NCBI GenBank assembly: GCA_052035095.1
Contig: JBPOHW010000007.1
Coordinates: 1,705-65,704 of the forward strand
Origin: Candidatus Moraniibacteriota bacterium
GTDB lineage: Bacteria > Patescibacteriota > Minisyncoccia > Moranbacterales > UBA1568
Length of the DNA: 64,000 nt
Direction of reading: 5' to 3'
Position numbers and translations under genes: made by a program
Shown: in pieces, positions 15,674 to 43,465 of the stretch
How the letters are laid out: each line of letters begins with the position of its first letter
Numbering within the stretch: the first letter of the stretch is position 1
The notes under the pieces: model-generated
Database searches by the model: none
The model's input: only the letters and a program-made list of their open reading frames with translations
Told to the model about the DNA's origin: nothing

Positions 15674-15949
15674 ATGGAAAAGATGTTCGAAGTTCATCAG
15701 GAAACAGAAGGAATTTCTGAAGTGATACTGAAAAAAGTACTCGAACGAGTACAAAAAGAACAAGAAAAAAACGCTACATACTTAAATGTCTCAGATTTTC
15801 TCAATGCGAATGAAGAAGCAAGGAACATTTATCAGGAATACTCCACAAAAAAATTTCCCGATGAAAGTTCTCAAAAAGAGGCTTTGCAGAAACTTGTGAC
15901 GGATCTCGCCACCACCTACGAAAATATGGAGGGGAAGATGATGAACTGA
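15674..15949 (+). CDS. Hypothetical small acidic protein
   Basis: 91-aa ORF followed by a strong intrinsic terminator at 15984..16011. Confidence 0.4.
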   Translation: MEKMFEVHQETEGISEVILKKVLERVQKEQEKNATYLNVSDFLNANEEARNIYQEYSTKKFPDESSQKEALQKLVTDLATTYENMEGKMMN

Positions 15950-15983
15950 CCAAAGCATCACGGATATCTCGCTTACATGTTTC

Positions 15984-16011
15984 AAAAAAACTCCCCTCTC
16001 GGGGAGTTTTT
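15984..16011. terminator. Bidirectional rho-independent terminator (CTCCCC-tctc-GGGGAG flanked by A-run/T-run)
   Basis: aaaaaaaCTCCCCtctcGGGGAGttttt lies between convergent genes 15674..15949 (+) and 16049..17023 (-). Confidence 0.75.
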
Positions 16012-16048
16012 GCTTTTGCCTCATTCCTCATTCTTTATTCCTTATTCT

Positions 16049-17023
16049 TCATTCCTGTTTCCCCATCTCCACTCTCGACTTCCAAAAAAAGTACCCAACA
16101 ACGACAAAGGTAATGAACGGCGCCACGAAGGGCGGCACATGCGCGCCAAAAGCTTCGAGGAGCATAATCGTACCGAGCGACAAGACCGAATACATCGCGC
16201 CGTTTTTGAGATAGGCATATTGTTTGATGCGCTCGATATTTCCGATCGTAAATTGTCGCACCGCCAAAGCGCCCAAGCTGTTCCCGATCAAAATGAGCGG
16301 CACCGAAAAGGTGAACGCAAACGCGCCCAACACGCCATCGATCGAAAATGTCGTATCAATCGCTTCGAGATAGAGGAGTTTGCTGATATCGGAAAGCGGT
16401 CGCTTCGAATCGAGCAGTTTCCGCTCACTCTCTTCCGCTTGTTGTTTGAATCCGTGCGTAATGAAGAACGCCGTCGACCCCACCACCGCGCCAAACGCGG
16501 CAAAAGGATTTTCCCCAATCGAAAACCACACGACTCCCGAGAGAATAACCGACACTACCGCATAGAACCACACACCTTGTGAATGAAAGAATTTTTCTCC
16601 GATGAGCCCATACTGTTTCTCCTCCATAAAGAGCCAGTGGAAAAACAAAAAGATCAAGAAAATGCCGCCTCCCATAAGGAGAATCGGCGCCGCCTTTTCA
16701 ACCGCCGCAACCACCGACGGATCGCTCGAGAGGGTTGAGGTAAATGCCTCAACGGGACCAAGCCCCGGCACCGAAAGCCACACAATAAGCCACGGCAAAA
16801 GCCCCCTAACAACAAAGACCGCAAAGAAAAGTCCCCAGGTGAGAAACCATTTTCGGGCACGCTCCCCCATCGTCCCCAACACCTGCGCGTTGATAATCGC
16901 GTTGTCAACGCTCGACACCGTCTCAAAGAGAAAGAGCCCGAGCACCACCAACACAAGAGAAAAAATATCCATAGGATGGATAATAGCAAAAAATGCAAAA
17001 AAGAAAAACCCTATTCCGAACAT
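16049..17023 (-). CDS. Polytopic integral membrane protein, DUF475/TerC-like (tentative)
   Basis: 324 aa with about 8 TM helices. Motif SVDNAIINAQVL is characteristic of the DUF475/TerC-related family. Last gene of the TerY-P operon. Confidence 0.55.
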   Translation of the reverse strand: MFGIGFFFFAFFAIIHPMDIFSLVLVVLGLFLFETVSSVDNAIINAQVLGTMGERARKWFLTWGLFFAVFVVRGLLPWLIVWLSVPGLGPVEAFTSTLSSDPSVVAAVEKAAPILLMGGGIFLIFLFFHWLFMEEKQYGLIGEKFFHSQGVWFYAVVSVILSGVVWFSIGENPFAAFGAVVGSTAFFITHGFKQQAEESERKLLDSKRPLSDISKLLYLEAIDTTFSIDGVLGAFAFTFSVPLILIGNSLGALAVRQFTIGNIERIKQYAYLKNGAMYSVLSLGTIMLLEAFGAHVPPFVAPFITFVVVGYFFWKSRVEMGKQE

Positions 17024-17068
17024 TCTCGAAACAGGGTTTTTGAAAAATCACCTGTACTTTTCTTGCCG

Positions 17069-18814
17069 CTACTTCATACGCACATGCCAGACGGCGCCAT
17101 CCTTGATGTAGAGGACTTTGTCGCCCCATACACCAAGAATCATATCGGTCGTGATCATTCGATCCGTTACCGAACGCTGTTGCTTGTTTGTCGGAACATA
17201 AACATCCATTTTGCCATCTTCGACAATCGCCACCTGAACACACCCAGCCGCCTTTGGAACAAGGGCAATGTTCAAACTCTGCGCATCTGTCACGCCGCTC
17301 CAGTACTCGTATCCGCTATAATCCGGCTTCATCGTCAATTCAATTTTTCGATAGTCACCATTTTTATCGGCGGCGATAATTGAAATGAATCCATTTCCGG
17401 ATCGAGCGGCTATCGGTCGAAGCCCATCCAATTCCTTAACACGAACTGTTCTGCATAACCCCGCTCCAAATGGGGCTACGATAAACATCGCACCAATGGC
17501 ATCCGTCACTCCAATGCCATCAAACCACCTCGTGGAATTAACAAGGACATCTACTGCCTTACCAGCACTTATCAACGGTCCCCTTGCCACGAGAAAAAAA
17601 GAAATCTCAACCAAACTTTGACTCGCCACAACAAACAGTCGATTTTCATATCGAACAACTCGTTGTCCTGCCGTTTGAAATGGAATAGGAGTTTCTTTTT
17701 GATGTTGCGATTTTCCGATATAGGAAAATGCGACACTCCCTCCTTTCATCTCCCCGACGAGCCATCCCTTCTCTACCGAGACCACTTCGCAATCTGTCGA
17801 ATGATTTCCCCCAATACGTTGCTTCGTGGAAAGATCCACAAGGGATCCATCTGACAAGAGAACAACGCCACAGGAAAACATCCGAACAACCTTTACTTGT
17901 GAGTCGGCAAAGATTTTCTCGAAGATAAGCGCTCCTTGCCCGCTCGTTACAACACGGAGAACCCGACCTGCCGCCGTTACCGCCACACCCACTGCAAACG
18001 GCGAAGGCATTTCGCTTCTTTCCCCGTTTTGAAACGTGGCAATGTACCAATCCAGCAGCGAACTGGGAATCTTATACGGATCCCGCACCGCCGCATTGAG
18101 CCGCACACCCGTCGTAAAAACAGATTTATTGTCTTGCATCCGTTTTACGAGGTCCTTGCGCGCGTATCCATCAAGCGTCCCTTTGTACGGATGAATTCCG
18201 GTATACAACTGAAAGGTAACAATACCCACCGAGAACCAATCCGACGCAGACGTAAATCCATTTGCGTGGTAGTCTCGAATGGACGGCATAATCACTGATG
18301 CCCCCCACTGATCAATCGCCCACGCGTCAACATCAATAGCGGAAACTTCAGGCTTCCCTTTCCCACTCCAATAAAGCAACCAATTGAGTTCGTTTGGATC
18401 GACAAGCGTGGCACCGCCACCATGCGCCGCAAGGGCAATTTCCCTCATCTGATGAACGGCGTCATTTGTTTCCTTATCCCCAAACCCAACCTGTTGCCTA
18501 TGATCCGTTGTGAAAAACGGCGGCAACATCATTCCCTCAACATACGGCGCCCAGTAACCAATCGGCTGACCTCCGACAATCGCCAGGCCTTTCGGTCCGG
18601 CGATATGCGGATGATTGATGTTGGCAAGAAGCCTGAATTTCTCCGGCATTCTGTCGTGCCGCATTTTTTGGTCATCCGCATACACCTTGACGACCGTATC
18701 CACATCTGCGCGGTAGACAGATCCTTCACCGCCTGTGGCGATATGATTCTGATCTGTCAGTACAACATCCTTATGATGTTCGAGTGATACTTTCAACACC
18801 TTTCCTTTAGCCAT
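17069..18814 (-). CDS. Divergent Ser/Thr protein kinase-like protein with C-terminal beta-rich domain (TerY-P triad kinase)
   Basis: Trimmed to ATG at 18814 (SD GAGGAGGG at -9). Gly-loop-like GGEGSVY, Lys-motif VVKVY and a D-W-S-V-G...Y-G subdomain (DWFSVGIVTFQLYTGIHPYKG). Start overlaps the stop of the PP2C gene. Confidence 0.55.
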   Translation of the reverse strand: MAKGKVLKVSLEHHKDVVLTDQNHIATGGEGSVYRADVDTVVKVYADDQKMRHDRMPEKFRLLANINHPHIAGPKGLAIVGGQPIGYWAPYVEGMMLPPFFTTDHRQQVGFGDKETNDAVHQMREIALAAHGGGATLVDPNELNWLLYWSGKGKPEVSAIDVDAWAIDQWGASVIMPSIRDYHANGFTSASDWFSVGIVTFQLYTGIHPYKGTLDGYARKDLVKRMQDNKSVFTTGVRLNAAVRDPYKIPSSLLDWYIATFQNGERSEMPSPFAVGVAVTAAGRVLRVVTSGQGALIFEKIFADSQVKVVRMFSCGVVLLSDGSLVDLSTKQRIGGNHSTDCEVVSVEKGWLVGEMKGGSVAFSYIGKSQHQKETPIPFQTAGQRVVRYENRLFVVASQSLVEISFFLVARGPLISAGKAVDVLVNSTRWFDGIGVTDAIGAMFIVAPFGAGLCRTVRVKELDGLRPIAARSGNGFISIIAADKNGDYRKIELTMKPDYSGYEYWSGVTDAQSLNIALVPKAAGCVQVAIVEDGKMDVYVPTNKQQRSVTDRMITTDMILGVWGDKVLYIKDGAVWHVRMK

Positions 18815-19739
18815 GGGAAATGCCCTCCTCATTCACAAAAGAATTCACATAAATTGCCGCGCACGCGAGATCGTCGAGCGGCCCATTGCCTGTCTTTTGC
18901 CAGGTCTTGGCCTGCCGCATCACGCGACGCGTCACAAACTGACCAGCCATCTGCTTGAATGCCAAGAGGCACGAAACCGCATCCTTCCAGTCCACGCCAT
19001 CTACTTGCATCACGCCATCAGAGAAGACAGCAACACACCGAATGTCTCCGCGAATAAATTTTTCCCGATCGATCGGAATCACAACTCCATCCATCACGTC
19101 GCGAAAAACATGCACGATCGGCTCTTGCTGTTGAAACTCCCCACTCGCTGAAACATGCCATACTTGATGAATCGGACGTTCTACCAAGATATTCCCTCCA
19201 TGAAACTCTTGAAGAAACTGTGCAACTCCCTCTTGTCCATAGGACGGATAGAGCGGCGCACCAACCTCCATTCCATCAGCGCCTTTCCCTTTCCAATCGA
19301 ACCGATGCACCTCCATCGTCCCGTCCGTATATACAATAGCCGCAACGCCATCACCCTGTACACAAACAACTCCAGTATACGGCGTGAGAATAATCGTAAG
19401 GCACGTCGCCACCAAATCATTCGTTCGCAGACCGAGAGTCTCCCGAGCTGTTGCAAAATGAATCTGTTGACGCATGTGAAGATCAGTCGGAACGATCTGC
19501 CAATCCGGTTGTTCAATAACAAGACGGCTCTTCAAAATCACCGAGGTCGTCGAACGCGCGACAACTCGCGCGCCCACGTCAGTCTCTCCGCCCGTTGAAC
19601 ACCCATCAGCAACAACCGCTACCGCTACCGGATCCGATACTCCCGAAAAAGCATAATCCTGGCACGGCTTTCCGGCCGTGAGATGATCATGCCCGATACA
19701 GAAGTAATGGTCGGTTTCAAACTGAATAACTGTACTCAT
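18807..19739 (-). CDS. PP2C-family Ser/Thr phosphatase (TerY-P triad phosphatase)
   Basis: Trimmed to ATG at 19739 (SD GGAG at -7). Asp-rich metal-binding motifs (VADGCSTGG..., VQGDGVAAIV, VFSDGVMQVDG) are consistent with the PP2C fold. Confidence 0.55.
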   Translation of the reverse strand: MSTVIQFETDHYFCIGHDHLTAGKPCQDYAFSGVSDPVAVAVVADGCSTGGETDVGARVVARSTTSVILKSRLVIEQPDWQIVPTDLHMRQQIHFATARETLGLRTNDLVATCLTIILTPYTGVVCVQGDGVAAIVYTDGTMEVHRFDWKGKGADGMEVGAPLYPSYGQEGVAQFLQEFHGGNILVERPIHQVWHVSASGEFQQQEPIVHVFRDVMDGVVIPIDREKFIRGDIRCVAVFSDGVMQVDGVDWKDAVSCLLAFKQMAGQFVTRRVMRQAKTWQKTGNGPLDDLACAAIYVNSFVNEEGISHG

Positions 19740-19845
19740 TAGTTCACACTCCACATCACAAAATCACAAAGAGAGAAAACGGCGAACGGGTTGTGGCCCG
19801 CCCGCCGTGTTATTTAACCTACACCTTTTCGACAGTCGATGACTT

Positions 19846-20598
19846 TTAGAATGTCGCCTGCTGACTTGCTCCACCAGTACCCAATGCTTGAGACTGGGAC
19901 GAAATCGAGCGAGACACAAAGTCTGCCAATTTCGCCAATTTTTGTGGCGTTGCGTCGCCGGCATCCACATATTGCGCGATGCCAGTTTCTCTTTGCCACC
20001 CTTCCAGTTCTCGACGACAAGAAGAAGCGTTTATTCCAACCAGGATCGTCACCAACGACTCAAGAATTTCTTCCTTCGTCGCAGTCTCGATCTGATCTCT
20101 CACGGCCTGGGTACTCATCATTGAAGCATTTTCGCCACCATCCGTGATAAGCACTCCGATGCCATTGACGGAGAAATCCTGATCCGTAAGCGTCTTGCCA
20201 TAGTCCTTCATAGCGCCGAATGCGGAATACGCGGCATCATTGAGCGGCGTCATACCGGTTGGGGAGAAATCCGGATACGCCACAGGATCAATATCCTTGA
20301 GCGCCTTAAATCCGTGAATCTCCCTGACATTCCCCGGAATCGTCGAGTTGAATTCGACGACCCGCACCAGTAGGTTATTCGCCCGAGGAGACTTTTTACA
20401 AGCATTAACAACCGCAACCACTGCCTTCCGTAACTCAGCCGCAAAAGCAAATGTCGAGCCCGTCGTATCCGCCGCGATCGTCGCAAGCGTGTACTCGGTC
20501 GCGCCGAGCTTTTCCACGCGAGCCGCCGTGAAATTGAAATTTCCACCACCGGTAATCCGATGGGACTGCATGTCATCATTCTGTGCCAAACGTGGCAT
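19846..20598 (-). CDS. von Willebrand factor A domain protein (TerY-like)
   Basis: MIDAS-like DTTGST motif and a downstream LITDGGEN (TDG) motif. 250 aa. Confidence 0.6.
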   Translation of the reverse strand: MPRLAQNDDMQSHRITGGGNFNFTAARVEKLGATEYTLATIAADTTGSTFAFAAELRKAVVAVVNACKKSPRANNLLVRVVEFNSTIPGNVREIHGFKALKDIDPVAYPDFSPTGMTPLNDAAYSAFGAMKDYGKTLTDQDFSVNGIGVLITDGGENASMMSTQAVRDQIETATKEEILESLVTILVGINASSCRRELEGWQRETGIAQYVDAGDATPQKLAKLADFVSRSISSQSQALGTGGASQQATF

Positions 20599-20697
20599 GG
20601 TCTTTACCTCTCGTTACAACAGTTTTGGAATGGTAGCCACAGATTGCTCCATGGCTACCTGTTTTCACAACAACATCTTCAACAGAGGTGAACGCCC

Positions 20698-21507
20698 TTA
20701 AAAGTCCGTAGACTTCATAAGACGCACGCCTTGCTTTTGTACATCCCTGAGCCACTGCTTGGCCATAGCCGGAAAATCCGGTCCGCCAGGCACCGCGCCC
20801 ACAGGACTCGCGCAGTCAGTCAATATCACCAACTTCGATACATCGCCGATATTTGCCATGACCTGATTGACCGTGGCCATCACACAGTGTGATAGCGCTT
20901 CACCACACAGCAAGACAGTGTCCACTGTCTGCAGAACACGAATCAACCCTGTATTGAGACCCGTTGTCGGATCATTGGGATCCGGCACCTCAGCTTCAAG
21001 ACCGCCGTAGTGTTCCGTCCATGGGTTTGACCCCTTGGTCACGTAATCTACGTTAGCAAACTCTTTGTGCTCCCACTCCTGAAGTGCGATCATCAGTCTT
21101 TCTTGAACACACCATCCCGGAGTGCCGATGAGGCAATGGGTCGGCCACACCATAATCTGGTACTTGCCGCCCGCCTCCAGAGCATGAGCATAGTCAATCA
21201 TGTACTGGCGACGAGAAGAATCCCGCGGAACCCAAACGCCATTCTCGATATCCTGCGCGGATATGAGCGTGAATGGATTTGGGTTTTTCCCTTGAGCATC
21301 TTCCCACATCGCCGCATGGCCAACATCAATCATCCGATGACTATCCATGGTGACATGAATATCATCGAATCGATGACCGGAGCGCCGAATCAAATCGGCA
21401 ACACGATCCATATCCGCATTTGCTCCCGTGACCGGAAGCGTCGCCCCCGGAATATCCATGAAGTCATTCTGGGGATCAATAACGAACAAATGTATCTTTT
21501 TGGCCAT
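20698..21507 (-). CDS. Isochorismatase-family cysteine hydrolase
   Basis: Trimmed to ATG at 21507 (MAKKIHLFVIDPQNDF). Family DxQNDF motif and a candidate catalytic Cys in GEALSHCV. Confidence 0.6.
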   Translation of the reverse strand: MAKKIHLFVIDPQNDFMDIPGATLPVTGANADMDRVADLIRRSGHRFDDIHVTMDSHRMIDVGHAAMWEDAQGKNPNPFTLISAQDIENGVWVPRDSSRRQYMIDYAHALEAGGKYQIMVWPTHCLIGTPGWCVQERLMIALQEWEHKEFANVDYVTKGSNPWTEHYGGLEAEVPDPNDPTTGLNTGLIRVLQTVDTVLLCGEALSHCVMATVNQVMANIGDVSKLVILTDCASPVGAVPGGPDFPAMAKQWLRDVQKQGVRLMKSTDF

Positions 21508-21781
21508 TTCATCTACCTTCTTCAATTGTCAAGTTACTACATTTTCCTCGCCCCAACAAAAGGTTTTCCTTTCGTCGACAGAACCGAGGATACCACTCTC
21601 CTCAATCTTGAGCTTTCAGTCAAAAAACGAAAGCAGCCATTGAGAAGAGAAATTTACAACCGAATATTTCAGTTGCAAGCTTCTAAAACACTGAAAATGC
21701 TGCAAAACTTCGAGAACACTGCCGCCAACTGGGCATCAATATTATCACTAAGCGAGAAAGTCGCTTTCGCGATAACGAGAA

Positions 21782-21810
21782 AATTTATCATACTGACAAA
21801 AACTTGTCAA
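21782..21810 (-). promoter_or_regulatory. Candidate sigma70 promoter for the hydrolase-vWA-PP2C-kinase-membrane operon
   Basis: On the minus strand: TTGACA (comp. 21805..21810), 17-nt spacer, TAAATT (comp. 21782..21787). Confidence 0.35.
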
Positions 21811-21857
21811 GCTCCCCGTGTCAAAAAACTGGATGAGGGAATTTTTCTCGTTTTCTC

Positions 21858-23861
21858 TCACTTCTTTTTCTTCCCTTTCTTTTTTTCTTTTTTCTTCTCC
21901 TTTTTGTCCGGTTTCTCCTCATCCGGAATATTTTTTCCGAAACGACTCGCGAGCGCGTAAATATCGGTCGGCGACGAAGCATACGGAGTAAAGACCGTTT
22001 TCGGATATCGGTCGAGCACGCGATCAAGAAAATCTCGCCAGAGAGGCGCCGCGACATAGACGCCGTCCGCGCCGTATCGAAGCGGCGTATTATCATTGTT
22101 CCCCGCCCACACAGAAACGGCGAGATGGGGAGTATACCCCACCGTCCATGCGTCGTGGAAGTCTTGAGTCGTCCCCGTCTTCGCGGCGACTCGACCTCGA
22201 GGGAACGCGAGCGGACCGCCTCGTCCGAATATGGGCGCGCGAAAATCATCATCCGAAAGCATCGTATTAATGCGTCGCGCAACTTCCGGAGAGAGCACTC
22301 GCGTCTCCTCAACAGTCGGCGTTTCCCGAAACGATCCATCGGCATTTTCAACCGAGAGCACGAATCGAGGCGTGCGGCGCACACCCTCCGAGGCAAACAC
22401 GGAAAACGCGCTCGCCATATCAAGCGGCAACACTTCCGCCCCGCCCAAAACAAGCGCGAGTCCATAGGGTCGCCCATCATCCAAAGTCGAGATGCCGAGA
22501 CGCTTCGCCAATTCAATCACATCAGAAACACCGGAAACGGCAAGTGTCTGTACGGCGGGAATATTCAAGGACTGCGGAAGTGCCTCTTTCATCGGAAGCG
22601 CTCCGCGATACTTGCCGTCGTAATCCTTCGGAATATAGTCGCGCCCCGTCCCGTCAGGACCGAAGTTGGTCGGCACATCATAAACGAGCGTTTCCGGCTG
22701 ATACCCTTCTTCAAACGCGCGTGCGTACGCAAACGGTTTAAAGGCCGAGCCCGGCTGGCGCGGACGAAGTGTCACATTCACTTTTCCATCAATATCCGCA
22801 TCAAAATAATCGCGGCTCCCCACCATCGCAAGCACATCGCCCGTCGAGACATCGACCGCGACGAGCGCTGCGTTCTCGGCGCCATACGAAGCATTGCGCT
22901 GAACCCCGTTTCGAACCGCCACCTCCGCCGCCTCCTGAAAATCAAGATCCAGCGTCGTCCGAATGGAGAGTCCCCGCGTCTCGAGAAAATCCCGTCCATG
23001 ATACTTTTCCAAGGCATCGATCACTGCAAACACAAAATGCGGCGCGCGAATCGGCGCCTCAATCGGGCGAATTTTCGCGAGCGTATTTTCGCTCCGCGCG
23101 AGTTCGACCTCGTACGGCGTCGCCACTCCGTCCTCCACCATACGGGAGAGAATCATCAACTGCCGGGCGCGAAGTTCCTTCCGATGCGATCCATACGGCG
23201 AGTAATACGTCGTCGCTCGCGGAAGCGCGGAAAGAAGCGCTGCCTCATCGAGCGAGAGTTCGCGCGCGCGCTTTCCAAAAAAAACTTTCGCCGCGCGTTC
23301 GATACCGTACGCATTCGAACCGTACGGAACGATATTGAGATACAGATCGAGAATTTCATCTTTCGTGTAGGCGCGCTCGATTTTTATAGCGAGTATCGCC
23401 TCGCGAATTTTTCGCGTATAAGTTTTTTCATTCGAGAGAAACACGATACGGGCAAGCTGCTGCGTAATAGTTGAGGCGCCTTGTTCGATAGAACCGCTCT
23501 CAACATTGACCCGAGCCGCACGAAGAATTGAAAAGAAATCAACGCCGATATGCCGAAAAAACGACCGGTCCTCCGCGGCAACTGTCGCCCGACGAACACC
23601 ATCCGGAATATCCTCATGCCCGATCACCGTGCGATTTTCTTCTCCGTGAAGCTCATAGAGTAAGACCGTTCCCGTCCGATCATAGATACCCGATGTTTCC
23701 GAAAGCCTCCGATTGAGAAGTTGCGTAATATCCGTCGTATCGGAAAAATAGAGTGCGAAAAAACCAAGCATCACTCCGATACCGATACAAAAAATCCAAT
23801 ACGCGCTCTCCCACACGCATGAAAAAAGAATCGTCACACATCGTTTCCCCCACACATTCAT
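21858..23861 (-). CDS. Class A penicillin-binding protein (transglycosylase + transpeptidase, PBP1A-type) with Lys-rich C-terminal tail
   Basis: N-terminal TM. GT51 motifs (EDRSFFRHIGVD..., ITQQLAR). Transpeptidase SxxK/SxN/KTG(T) region. C-terminal PDEEKPDKKEKKKEKKKGKKKK tail. Confidence 0.85.
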   Translation of the reverse strand: MNVWGKRCVTILFSCVWESAYWIFCIGIGVMLGFFALYFSDTTDITQLLNRRLSETSGIYDRTGTVLLYELHGEENRTVIGHEDIPDGVRRATVAAEDRSFFRHIGVDFFSILRAARVNVESGSIEQGASTITQQLARIVFLSNEKTYTRKIREAILAIKIERAYTKDEILDLYLNIVPYGSNAYGIERAAKVFFGKRARELSLDEAALLSALPRATTYYSPYGSHRKELRARQLMILSRMVEDGVATPYEVELARSENTLAKIRPIEAPIRAPHFVFAVIDALEKYHGRDFLETRGLSIRTTLDLDFQEAAEVAVRNGVQRNASYGAENAALVAVDVSTGDVLAMVGSRDYFDADIDGKVNVTLRPRQPGSAFKPFAYARAFEEGYQPETLVYDVPTNFGPDGTGRDYIPKDYDGKYRGALPMKEALPQSLNIPAVQTLAVSGVSDVIELAKRLGISTLDDGRPYGLALVLGGAEVLPLDMASAFSVFASEGVRRTPRFVLSVENADGSFRETPTVEETRVLSPEVARRINTMLSDDDFRAPIFGRGGPLAFPRGRVAAKTGTTQDFHDAWTVGYTPHLAVSVWAGNNDNTPLRYGADGVYVAAPLWRDFLDRVLDRYPKTVFTPYASSPTDIYALASRFGKNIPDEEKPDKKEKKKEKKKGKKKK

Positions 23862-43091: not shown

Positions 43092-43465
43092 CAAAAATAC
43101 GAATCGGCGCTCAACCACACATCGACTGCCTGAACGATCACGTACCCCATCAGCGCGACAATCACCCCGACGATAGACCACTTCATCGCTTCTTTGGCCG
43201 TTTTGATCTGACCGTCATTTCCGGCGGCCGTAAGATAGAGGATGCCCGAAATCACAAAGCCGATAATCGCGATGAAGCCGAGAAGTCCAAGGATCCAATC
43301 CATCGTACTGCCCGCGATATCAATAATAGGCGCAACTGGCAATCCCGACTGCATCGGCCCCGTAAGCGCCGGGTTCTCCCCCGTCTGCGCAAGCGCGCCA
43401 AGTGGCAGAAGCGCCATTCCCCCAGCTATTCCCCTCCGAACCCGCGAAACTATTGTGTGTTTCAT
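43091..43465 (-). CDS. TrbC/VirB2-like small pilin-family membrane protein
   Basis: 124 aa. Signal peptide, then two hydrophobic helices separated by LYLTAAGNDGQIKTAKEAMKWS. Paralogous to 43555..43926 and 44105..44485. Confidence 0.7.
   Translation of the reverse strand: MKHTIVSRVRRGIAGGMALLPLGALAQTGENPALTGPMQSGLPVAPIIDIAGSTMDWILGLLGFIAIIGFVISGILYLTAAGNDGQIKTAKEAMKWSIVGVIVALMGYVIVQAVDVWLSADSYF

Follow-up and report, generated by a model that had tools for sequence, protein, structure and literature searches.

A cassette common to Candidate Phyla Radiation bacteria and huge phages joins a divergent nicotinamidase-like gene to a TerY-P-like triad and may control NAD salvage

We analyzed a 64,000 nt stretch of Candidatus Moraniibacteriota bacterium (assembly GCA_052035095.1, contig JBPOHW010000007.1, positions 1,705–65,704 of the forward strand; hereafter, the window), which carries on its minus strand four consecutive genes, designated here A to D, for a nicotinamidase-like hydrolase, a von Willebrand factor A (vWA) protein, a PP2C-family phosphatase and a YegI-type Ser/Thr protein kinase. 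Our preferred reading, to which we assign a probability of roughly 0.55, is that the products of B, C and D constitute a TerY-P-like phospho-switch tied to the nicotinamidase step of deamidating salvage of nicotinamide adenine dinucleotide (NAD). It is based on the retention of the catalytic residues in each of the four proteins, the invariable order of their genes, a neighborhood of NAD genes with coupling to their regulon, and the presence of the cassette in genomes of two widely different kinds. Literature searches for nicotinamidases in connection with vWA proteins, kinases, phages or the Candidate Phyla Radiation (CPR) retrieved no description of a nicotinamidase-vWA-PP2C-kinase cassette.

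A reading of this DNA made from the sequence alone had proposed an operon of five co-directional genes, and the open reading frame (ORF) listing does contain five such ORFs, A to E, spanning from 21507 down to 16049 on the minus strand. Gene A (20698–21507) codes for 269 aa from an ATG, with an alternative TTG upstream, at 21525; gene B (19846–20598) codes for a TerY/YegL-type vWA protein of 250 aa with a metal ion-dependent adhesion site (MIDAS) and a Ser-rich C-terminal tail. Gene C (18807–19739), for a PphC/YegK-like Ser/Thr phosphatase, specifies 310 aa from the ATG at 19739; the gene annotated on the source contig begins there, and this is probably the true start, in place of the GTG at 19754 chosen by the ORF tool. 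For gene D (17069–18814; 581 aa) the tool gave 17069–18832 (587 aa), but the gene in fact begins six codons downstream, with the ATG in position 18814, as fixed by an identical database protein of 581 aa and by the alignment of homologs. With this start, the stop codon of C (TAA, 18809–18807) overlaps the ATG of D by exactly 8 nt, as the sequence-only reading had it. Its short distances among the first four genes thus hold for C and D and need correction for A and B (99 nt) and for B and C (106 nt), while the 25 nt given before the last ORF are in reality 45 nt (17024–17068). This last ORF, gene E (16049–17023; 324 aa), codes for a DUF475/TerC-like protein (Pfam DUF475, 4e-42).

The arrangement of genes A to D is conserved far beyond chance. 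A pattern scan of one genome per species in 185,579 species representatives, limited by the motifs used, yielded 80 genome loci, whose ORFs were called, selected with homology weighting and then clustered. In 66 of these 80 independent loci, mostly from CPR/Parcubacteria, the four genes follow one another without interruption, on one strand and in the order seen in the window; the 14 exceptions corresponded to contig ends or ORF-calling artefacts. Sequence conservation of the cassette was 45–60% across CPR orders. An exhaustive search for homologs of D retrieved 583 clusters (50% identity) at E ≤ 1e-30; hundreds of full-length proteins at 45–50% identity to D are annotated as hypothetical and derive mostly from metagenome-assembled genomes of Parcubacteria/Paceibacterota. 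There is also a distant variant, with 27% identity in the kinase, in which the order is A, a DUF7487 protein, B, kinase gene D and PP2C gene C (L087:316–5405).

Gene E does not share this conservation, so that the expected co-occurrence of the genes in relatives is borne out for A to D and fails for DUF475. A DUF475 gene was found near the cassette only in the genome of the window and in its closest relative (L127/L128), and directly next to D in no locus other than the window. The cassette proteins of this relative are 87–90% identical to those of the window (87% for the kinase), with 82.7% nucleotide identity over A–D, and its gene order is A-B-C-D-NMNAT-pncB-nadE-DUF475-small ORF-thrS. The window agrees with this order on both sides and lacks the 4.4 kb NMNAT-pncB-nadE block (L127:5683–10054 versus window 17024–17068); its absence brought DUF475 next to D, and the adjacency is therefore an indel scar and not a functional link. 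Directly 3′ of the D stop codon there is, in addition, a terminator-like hairpin of 17 bp followed by a run of T (17004–17041, minus strand), which would mark the 3′ end of the A–D unit. The nominal ATG of E (17023) lies in the loop of this hairpin, and homology to the DUF475 family starts only at residue 18 of E in an NCBIfam search, from which E probably starts at the ATG in position 16972 and is probably transcribed separately from A–D.

It was proposed that the five genes make up a membrane-linked signaling or defense operon, with the DUF475/TerC-like protein as a partner of the triad. The genes are indeed co-directional and adjacent in the window, and the TerC family occurs in the Ter stress systems where TerY-P triads were first described (PMC10542128, PMC7824862). 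Nevertheless, DUF475 adjoins the cassette in no locus outside this lineage, in the closest relative three NAD genes come between it and D, the hairpin intervenes in the window, and no membrane segments were visible on inspection of the A–D sequences. The lack of co-conservation leaves the membrane-linked reading without a basis and we consider the five-gene operon very improbable; as judged from sequence comparison, the unit is made up of four genes, not five.

The product of gene A is predicted to be a divergent nicotinamidase that keeps all nicotinamidase-specific residues, which substantiates and narrows down the cysteine hydrolase of the sequence-only reading. Among PDB sequences, A matched only nicotinamidases/pyrazinamidases, both as a single sequence (2h0r, 8e-4) and as a profile of 29 family members (29iv, 1.3e-7; 2h0r, 2.8e-7; also 3pl1 and 1ilw). 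The catalytic triad D11-K158-C208, which aligns with the catalytic residues of 2h0r and 29iv, is invariant in 73 CPR and 23 phage copies. Likewise invariant in these copies are D55 and H57, in the motif TMDSH, and H124, in WPTHC; these motifs align with TRDWH and WPVHC of yeast Pnc1, and we take the three residues to be the Asp/His/His metal ligands by analogy with the Pnc1 and PncA structures. Compared with canonical PncA, A has extra insertions and a C-terminal extension. Additionally, in seven lineages (L127:517–1231, L014:6617–7330, L017, L023, L056, L061 and L081) A is fused to a conserved N-terminal domain of around 238 aa without a Pfam match; these include the closest relative of the window, whose own A lacks this domain. 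In one of them (L017), a free-standing extra copy of the domain follows the kinase gene.

The vWA domain of B is identifiable only by comparison of its predicted fold. Its AlphaFold2 model (pLDDT 86.7) matched integrin I domains, the vWA domain of ITIH1 and Rpn10 in a Foldseek search against PDB, while a profile of B retrieved no match among PDB sequences, and Pfam VWA matched only one of 45 B homologs and not the window protein. None of the MIDAS residues D44, G47, S48, T117 and D153 varies among the copies from CPR bacteria and phages. The C-terminal tail, FVSxSxSSQSQALGTGGPS, is strikingly conserved, and its residues S229, S231, S233, S236 and S245 do not change even when CPR copies are compared with those of phages. 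Homologs of B are labeled YegL/COG4245 by JGI; the hhalign comparison of B with YegL from Escherichia coli was weak (probability 26%) but collinear, including the Ser-rich C-terminal helix.

C was assigned by its match to Pfam PP2C_2 (1.5e-15) and to PphC from E. coli (hhalign probability 91.7%, E 7.7e-7). The residues of its metal site (D28, D45-G46, G129-D130-G131, D241-G242 and D289-D290) show no variation across 109 sequences from CPR bacteria and phages.

The kinase D could be modeled with a pLDDT of 88 as a kinase domain (residues 1–270) followed by an all-beta domain (285–581), and its best full-length Foldseek match was the kinase-WD40 region of LRRK2. All the motifs highlighted previously in this divergent kinase (GGEGSVY, VVKVY and DWFSVG...LYTG) are present, and canonical HRD and DFG motifs are replaced by LVD-P-N-E-L-N (in place of HRDLKxxN) and IDVD, respectively. 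The catalytic Lys, Asp and Asn are retained, as is a DxD motif, and the kinase profile aligned with YegI from E. coli with a probability of 97% (E 6e-11). YegI is an active Ser kinase that prefers Mn and requires the equivalent Lys and Asp (bioRxiv 10.1101/819920), and PphC is also biochemically active (bioRxiv 10.1101/303594). The C-terminal domain of D, with around 300 aa and some 28 beta strands, is soluble and propeller-like; it is the least conserved part of D in the alignment of CPR and phage copies, as expected for a sensor or an adaptor.

The vWA, PP2C and kinase combination recognized from the sequence is thus upheld, by fold for B, by Pfam and hhalign for C and by YegI-like motifs for D, and the nearest characterized system is YegL-PphC (YegK)-YegI from E. 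coli, together with the TerY-P modules of defense and CoCoNuT systems. The E. coli triad comprises the same three types of protein, encoded by adjacent genes with an overlap between phosphatase and kinase, and YegI shares with D the motifs GGEGxVY and VxKxY, D-x-N-x-N in place of HRDLKxxN and DxD in place of DFG (DSD in YegI). However, YegI has two transmembrane helices and an HhH-like C-terminus, whereas D has its soluble all-beta domain; moreover, the E. coli triad lacks a nicotinamidase partner and a context of NAD genes. The kinases of TerY-P modules are defined by a C-terminal zinc ribbon, or by an OB fold in the defense version (PMC10542128). Those of TerY-P defense modules and of CoCoNuT types II and III-A are fused to such domains and accompany nucleases or restriction genes, whereas the cassette has a kinase with a propeller-like domain, an invariant nicotinamidase as its fourth gene and NAD biosynthesis neighbors. 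It therefore shares with TerY-P systems the vWA protein with MIDAS, the PP2C phosphatase and the YegI-type kinase, but neither the zinc ribbon or OB fold nor a context of Ter, restriction or defense genes.

The recurrent context of the cassette in CPR loci is, instead, that of NAD salvage and of the NrtR regulon; the tellurite-resistance or defense-island setting anticipated from the window was found in none of them. In a complete genome of Niyogibacteria, the cassette lies between nrtR and a group of genes for NMNAT/NAD kinase, pncB, prs and nadE. Among the 80 loci, neighboring genes coded for NrtR (37), NAPRTase/PncB (38), NadE (25 plus 6) and NAD kinase (14), and other recurrent neighbors, as identified with Pfam, were NMNAT-like proteins, Prs, ADP-ribosylglycohydrolase (ARH), Nudix hydrolase, PnuC and NadR. 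At least one NAD-related neighbor was present in 55 of the 80 loci, and a biosynthetic enzyme (pncB, nadE or NMN adenylyltransferase) in 50.

De novo counting of palindromes upstream of A revealed the motif TAGTGTA-N5-TACACTA, which occurred, with up to two mismatches, at 142 sites in 1.36 Mb, versus 4–7 in shuffled sequences. These sites are almost all intergenic and precede A, nrtR, pncB, nadE, NMNAT, nadK, the Nudix gene and ARH; of 69 loci, 39 have the motif in the 400 bp that precede A. The palindrome includes a GT-N7-AC core, as reported for NrtR sites, and it would fit an NrtR operator; A also occupies the slot of pncA in the known nrtR-pncA-pncB-nadD-nadE operons (PMC2330246). The cassette loci thus resemble NrtR salvage operons (Rodionov et al., 2008) in the family of the regulator, the core of the operator, the pathway genes and the position of A, but those operons contain a short, canonical PncA and no signaling genes, whereas here a long, divergent PncA-like gene always has genes for the vWA protein, PP2C and kinase after it.

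The cassette is also present in huge phages, with 25–31% identity in the kinase. Two GenBank entries for uncultured phages (LR756511.1, 595 kb; LR745208.1, 485 kb) contain A, B, C and D in this order within 7–12 kb, IMG/VR contributed 24 loci, the longest of their contigs reaching 480 kb, and another copy was found on a metagenomic contig that encodes replication proteins of phage type. Of the 24 loci from IMG/VR, 21 have a pncB, nadE, NMNAT or prs gene within 10 kb, and NAD genes are often intercalated between those of the cassette (A-B-C-pncB-nadE-D, A-B-pncB-nadE-C-D or A-B-nadE-C-NMNAT-D). The phage loci contained no sequence matching the operator motif and no canonical PncA, and PHROGs returned only families of unknown function for A and B. 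Additionally, three Bradyrhizobium isolates (L063, L067 and L074) carry the cassette in a prophage that also encodes a polymerase exonuclease; the prophage-like region, of around 110–130 kb (L063, L067 and L074; L095–L098), includes genes for a RecE-like exonuclease, a Dam methylase, a radical SAM protein, a HerA-like ATPase and an integrase. An extra ORF of 128–152 aa is found between the PP2C and kinase genes in the three isolates and in L095–L098.

Nicotinamide enters the deamidating Preiss-Handler route to NAD by its conversion into nicotinate. In our preferred reading, A would catalyze this step and feed PncB, while the kinase D would sense, through its beta domain, a signal related to NAD status and phosphorylate the invariant ladder of serines in the tail of B, from which the phosphatase C would remove the phosphates. 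The phosphorylation state of B would then set the activity or the assembly of the nicotinamidase, through the MIDAS or by docking, possibly on the beta domain of the kinase, and the activity of A would in turn set the flux of nicotinamide into NAD resynthesis.

Several observations weigh against this proposal. The phospho-acceptor and the output of the switch are guesses on our part. A stays below the gathering cut-off of Pfam Isochorismatase (24.4 bits versus 27), a domain matched at E ≤ 0.01 by 18 of 29 proteins of the A family, and Pfam VWA does not detect B. There is no NAD gene anywhere in the 64 kb window and no NrtR-type operator upstream of its gene A; scanning the window for the operator returned a single match, with three mismatches, at 43453, which is at chance level, and the motif was not found in the closest relative either. 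Operator and clustering with nrtR and NAD genes, both found in other CPR loci, are thus missing here, and the window cassette stands alone yet intact. Some CPR loci also lack nearby NAD genes, and none adjoin the Bradyrhizobium prophage copies. Likewise, some of the viral contigs from IMG/VR could be misclassified CPR DNA, and one of them (L093, 45% identity) probably is. The pattern scan, motif-limited as it was, found the cassette in only about 100 of the 185,579 species representatives, and its distribution thus looks accessory or mobile rather than core. Finally, in four CPR loci (L022, L038, L052 and L072) the NAD cluster contains a canonical isochorismatase/PncA of 210 aa (cluster c57) besides the divergent A, which may therefore not be simply the housekeeping nicotinamidase.

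This coexistence is among the observations suited to another explanation, which keeps the link to NAD salvage but denies the triad the role of a regulatory switch: B would assist A as a Mg-dependent chaperone of the vWA type or load it with metal, or A would act on another substrate, such as a nicotinamide nucleotide, nicotinamide riboside or a protein-bound amide, and the kinase and phosphatase would tune maturation. In support of it, vWA proteins have been described as Mg-dependent, peptide-binding chaperones in conflict systems centered on NAD and ADP-ribose (PMC9503650), and A, a metal enzyme, differs from canonical PncA by insertions and a C-terminal extension and is in some lineages additionally fused to the 238-aa domain. 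Against it, none of the nicotinamidase-specific residues varies, those of the Asp/His/His site binding the pyridine nitrogen among them; an AAA+ MoxR partner, usual for vWA chaperones, is missing; and the strict conservation of the kinase and phosphatase active sites argues for real phospho-cycling. We regard this explanation as unlikely. A further comparison, with the ARG-centric NrtR/WYL systems that include vWA chaperones (PMC9503650), was set aside, since their gene set is different.

Stand-alone TerY-P defense modules were reportedly described by Gao and coworkers in 2020. The cassette might be a stand-alone anti-phage or superinfection-exclusion system, with the triad sensing infection and the nicotinamidase as effector, which could for instance destroy nicotinamide and thereby keep phages from rebuilding NAD; the NAD neighbors would then be secondary. 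TerY-P modules, besides forming defense systems by themselves, accompany CoCoNuT restriction systems (PMC10542128), and the patchy distribution of the cassette, mobile between CPR bacteria and phages, and its location beside the HerA-like ATPase, Dam and exonuclease genes in the Bradyrhizobium prophages would suit a role in defense, as would the weak matches of D to the defense kinases mad6 and PD-T4-6. For A–E, PADLOC recognized no system and returned only weak kinase matches, and NCBIfam returned only a weak MAD6 kinase match and DUF475 equivalogs. The PADLOC negative is uninformative about TerY-P membership because YegL, PphC and YegI from E. coli are also unmatched. On the other hand, the cassette shares its operator with pncB, nadE and NMNAT in CPR loci, where it takes the position of pncA, and it is interleaved with NAD synthesis genes in phages; its high conservation and fixed order are unlike those of fast-evolving defense genes, and its kinase has neither the zinc ribbon nor the OB fold of described TerY-P kinases. 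A primary role in defense thus appears quite improbable.

The phosphorylation-controlled salvage that we favor also bears comparison with the NAD+ reconstitution pathways NARP1 to NARP3 and with the KVP40-type NadV/NadM of phages, in which NAD is likewise rebuilt from its breakdown products by genes carried by large phages. NARP1 consists of Adps and Namat, NARP2 of Nampt and Nmnat, and NARP3 of PnuC and NadR; in contrast to the cassette loci, none of them uses the deamidating combination of nicotinamidase, PncB and NadE, or includes a kinase, a phosphatase or a vWA protein. As a more tentative extension, which we hold to be possible but doubtful, the cassette could provide both sensor and gate for a fourth route of NAD+ reconstitution, a deamidating one (nicotinamidase, PncB, NMNAT and NadE), common to huge phages and CPR bacteria, in which the beta domain of the kinase would detect a consequence of NAD cleavage and turn on recycling through phosphorylation of the vWA protein. 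Candidate signals would be a burst of nicotinamide or ADP-ribose, or a fall in NAD. Under this extension, the cassette would represent the first Ser/Thr phospho-control of NAD salvage in prokaryotes and, in phages, would act as a regulated counter-defense against NADase immunity (Sir2, TIR, SEFIR).

As for the non-coding sequences around the cassette, a GC-rich hairpin of 12 bp, nine of them GC, followed by a run of T (19779–19808, minus strand) lies between B and C, and could be an internal attenuator leading to more transcript from A–B than from C–D. A promoter-like site (TTGACA-17-TAAATT, with TG; 21782–21810, minus strand) was found by consensus scan around 275 nt upstream of A; it is weak evidence of a promoter, because such sites are no commoner in the region than in shuffled sequences. 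The 350 nt region upstream of A contains a non-coding element of about 60 nt, TTYAGAARCTTGCAWCTGAAATATTCGGYTGYAAATTTCTCTTCTCAAT (21639–21688, minus strand), that is 90% identical in the closest relative, where the flanking DNA does not align. It has a hairpin of 7 bp and a T-rich tail, shows no match in Rfam, and its core is present, among 130 loci, only in this lineage. A search of positions 15900–22000 against Rfam with a permissive threshold returned nothing relevant; in particular, the leader of A (350 nt) has no NAD riboswitch. Further upstream, a penicillin-binding-protein-like ORF (21858–23861, minus strand; 667 aa) codes for a long, Lys/Glu-rich C-terminal tail (…PDEEKPDKKEKKKEKKKGKKKK). 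GC skew was negative in every 2-kb bin of the window, whatever the strand of the genes, consistent with a single replichore.

The analysis corrects the annotation of proteins that were designated as hypothetical in every source checked, and places them in a setting where NAD is of consequence: its depletion and reconstitution are a central front in the conflict between phages and bacteria, and NAD salvage is a lifeline for genome-reduced CPR symbionts. Should the preferred reading be right, the cassette would place a post-translational control on top of a pathway whose regulation is regarded as purely transcriptional (NrtR, NiaR and NadR), and triads of the TerY-P type would gain a concrete, assayable target enzyme. 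In phages, it would extend the repertoire of NAD reconstitution to the deamidating route.

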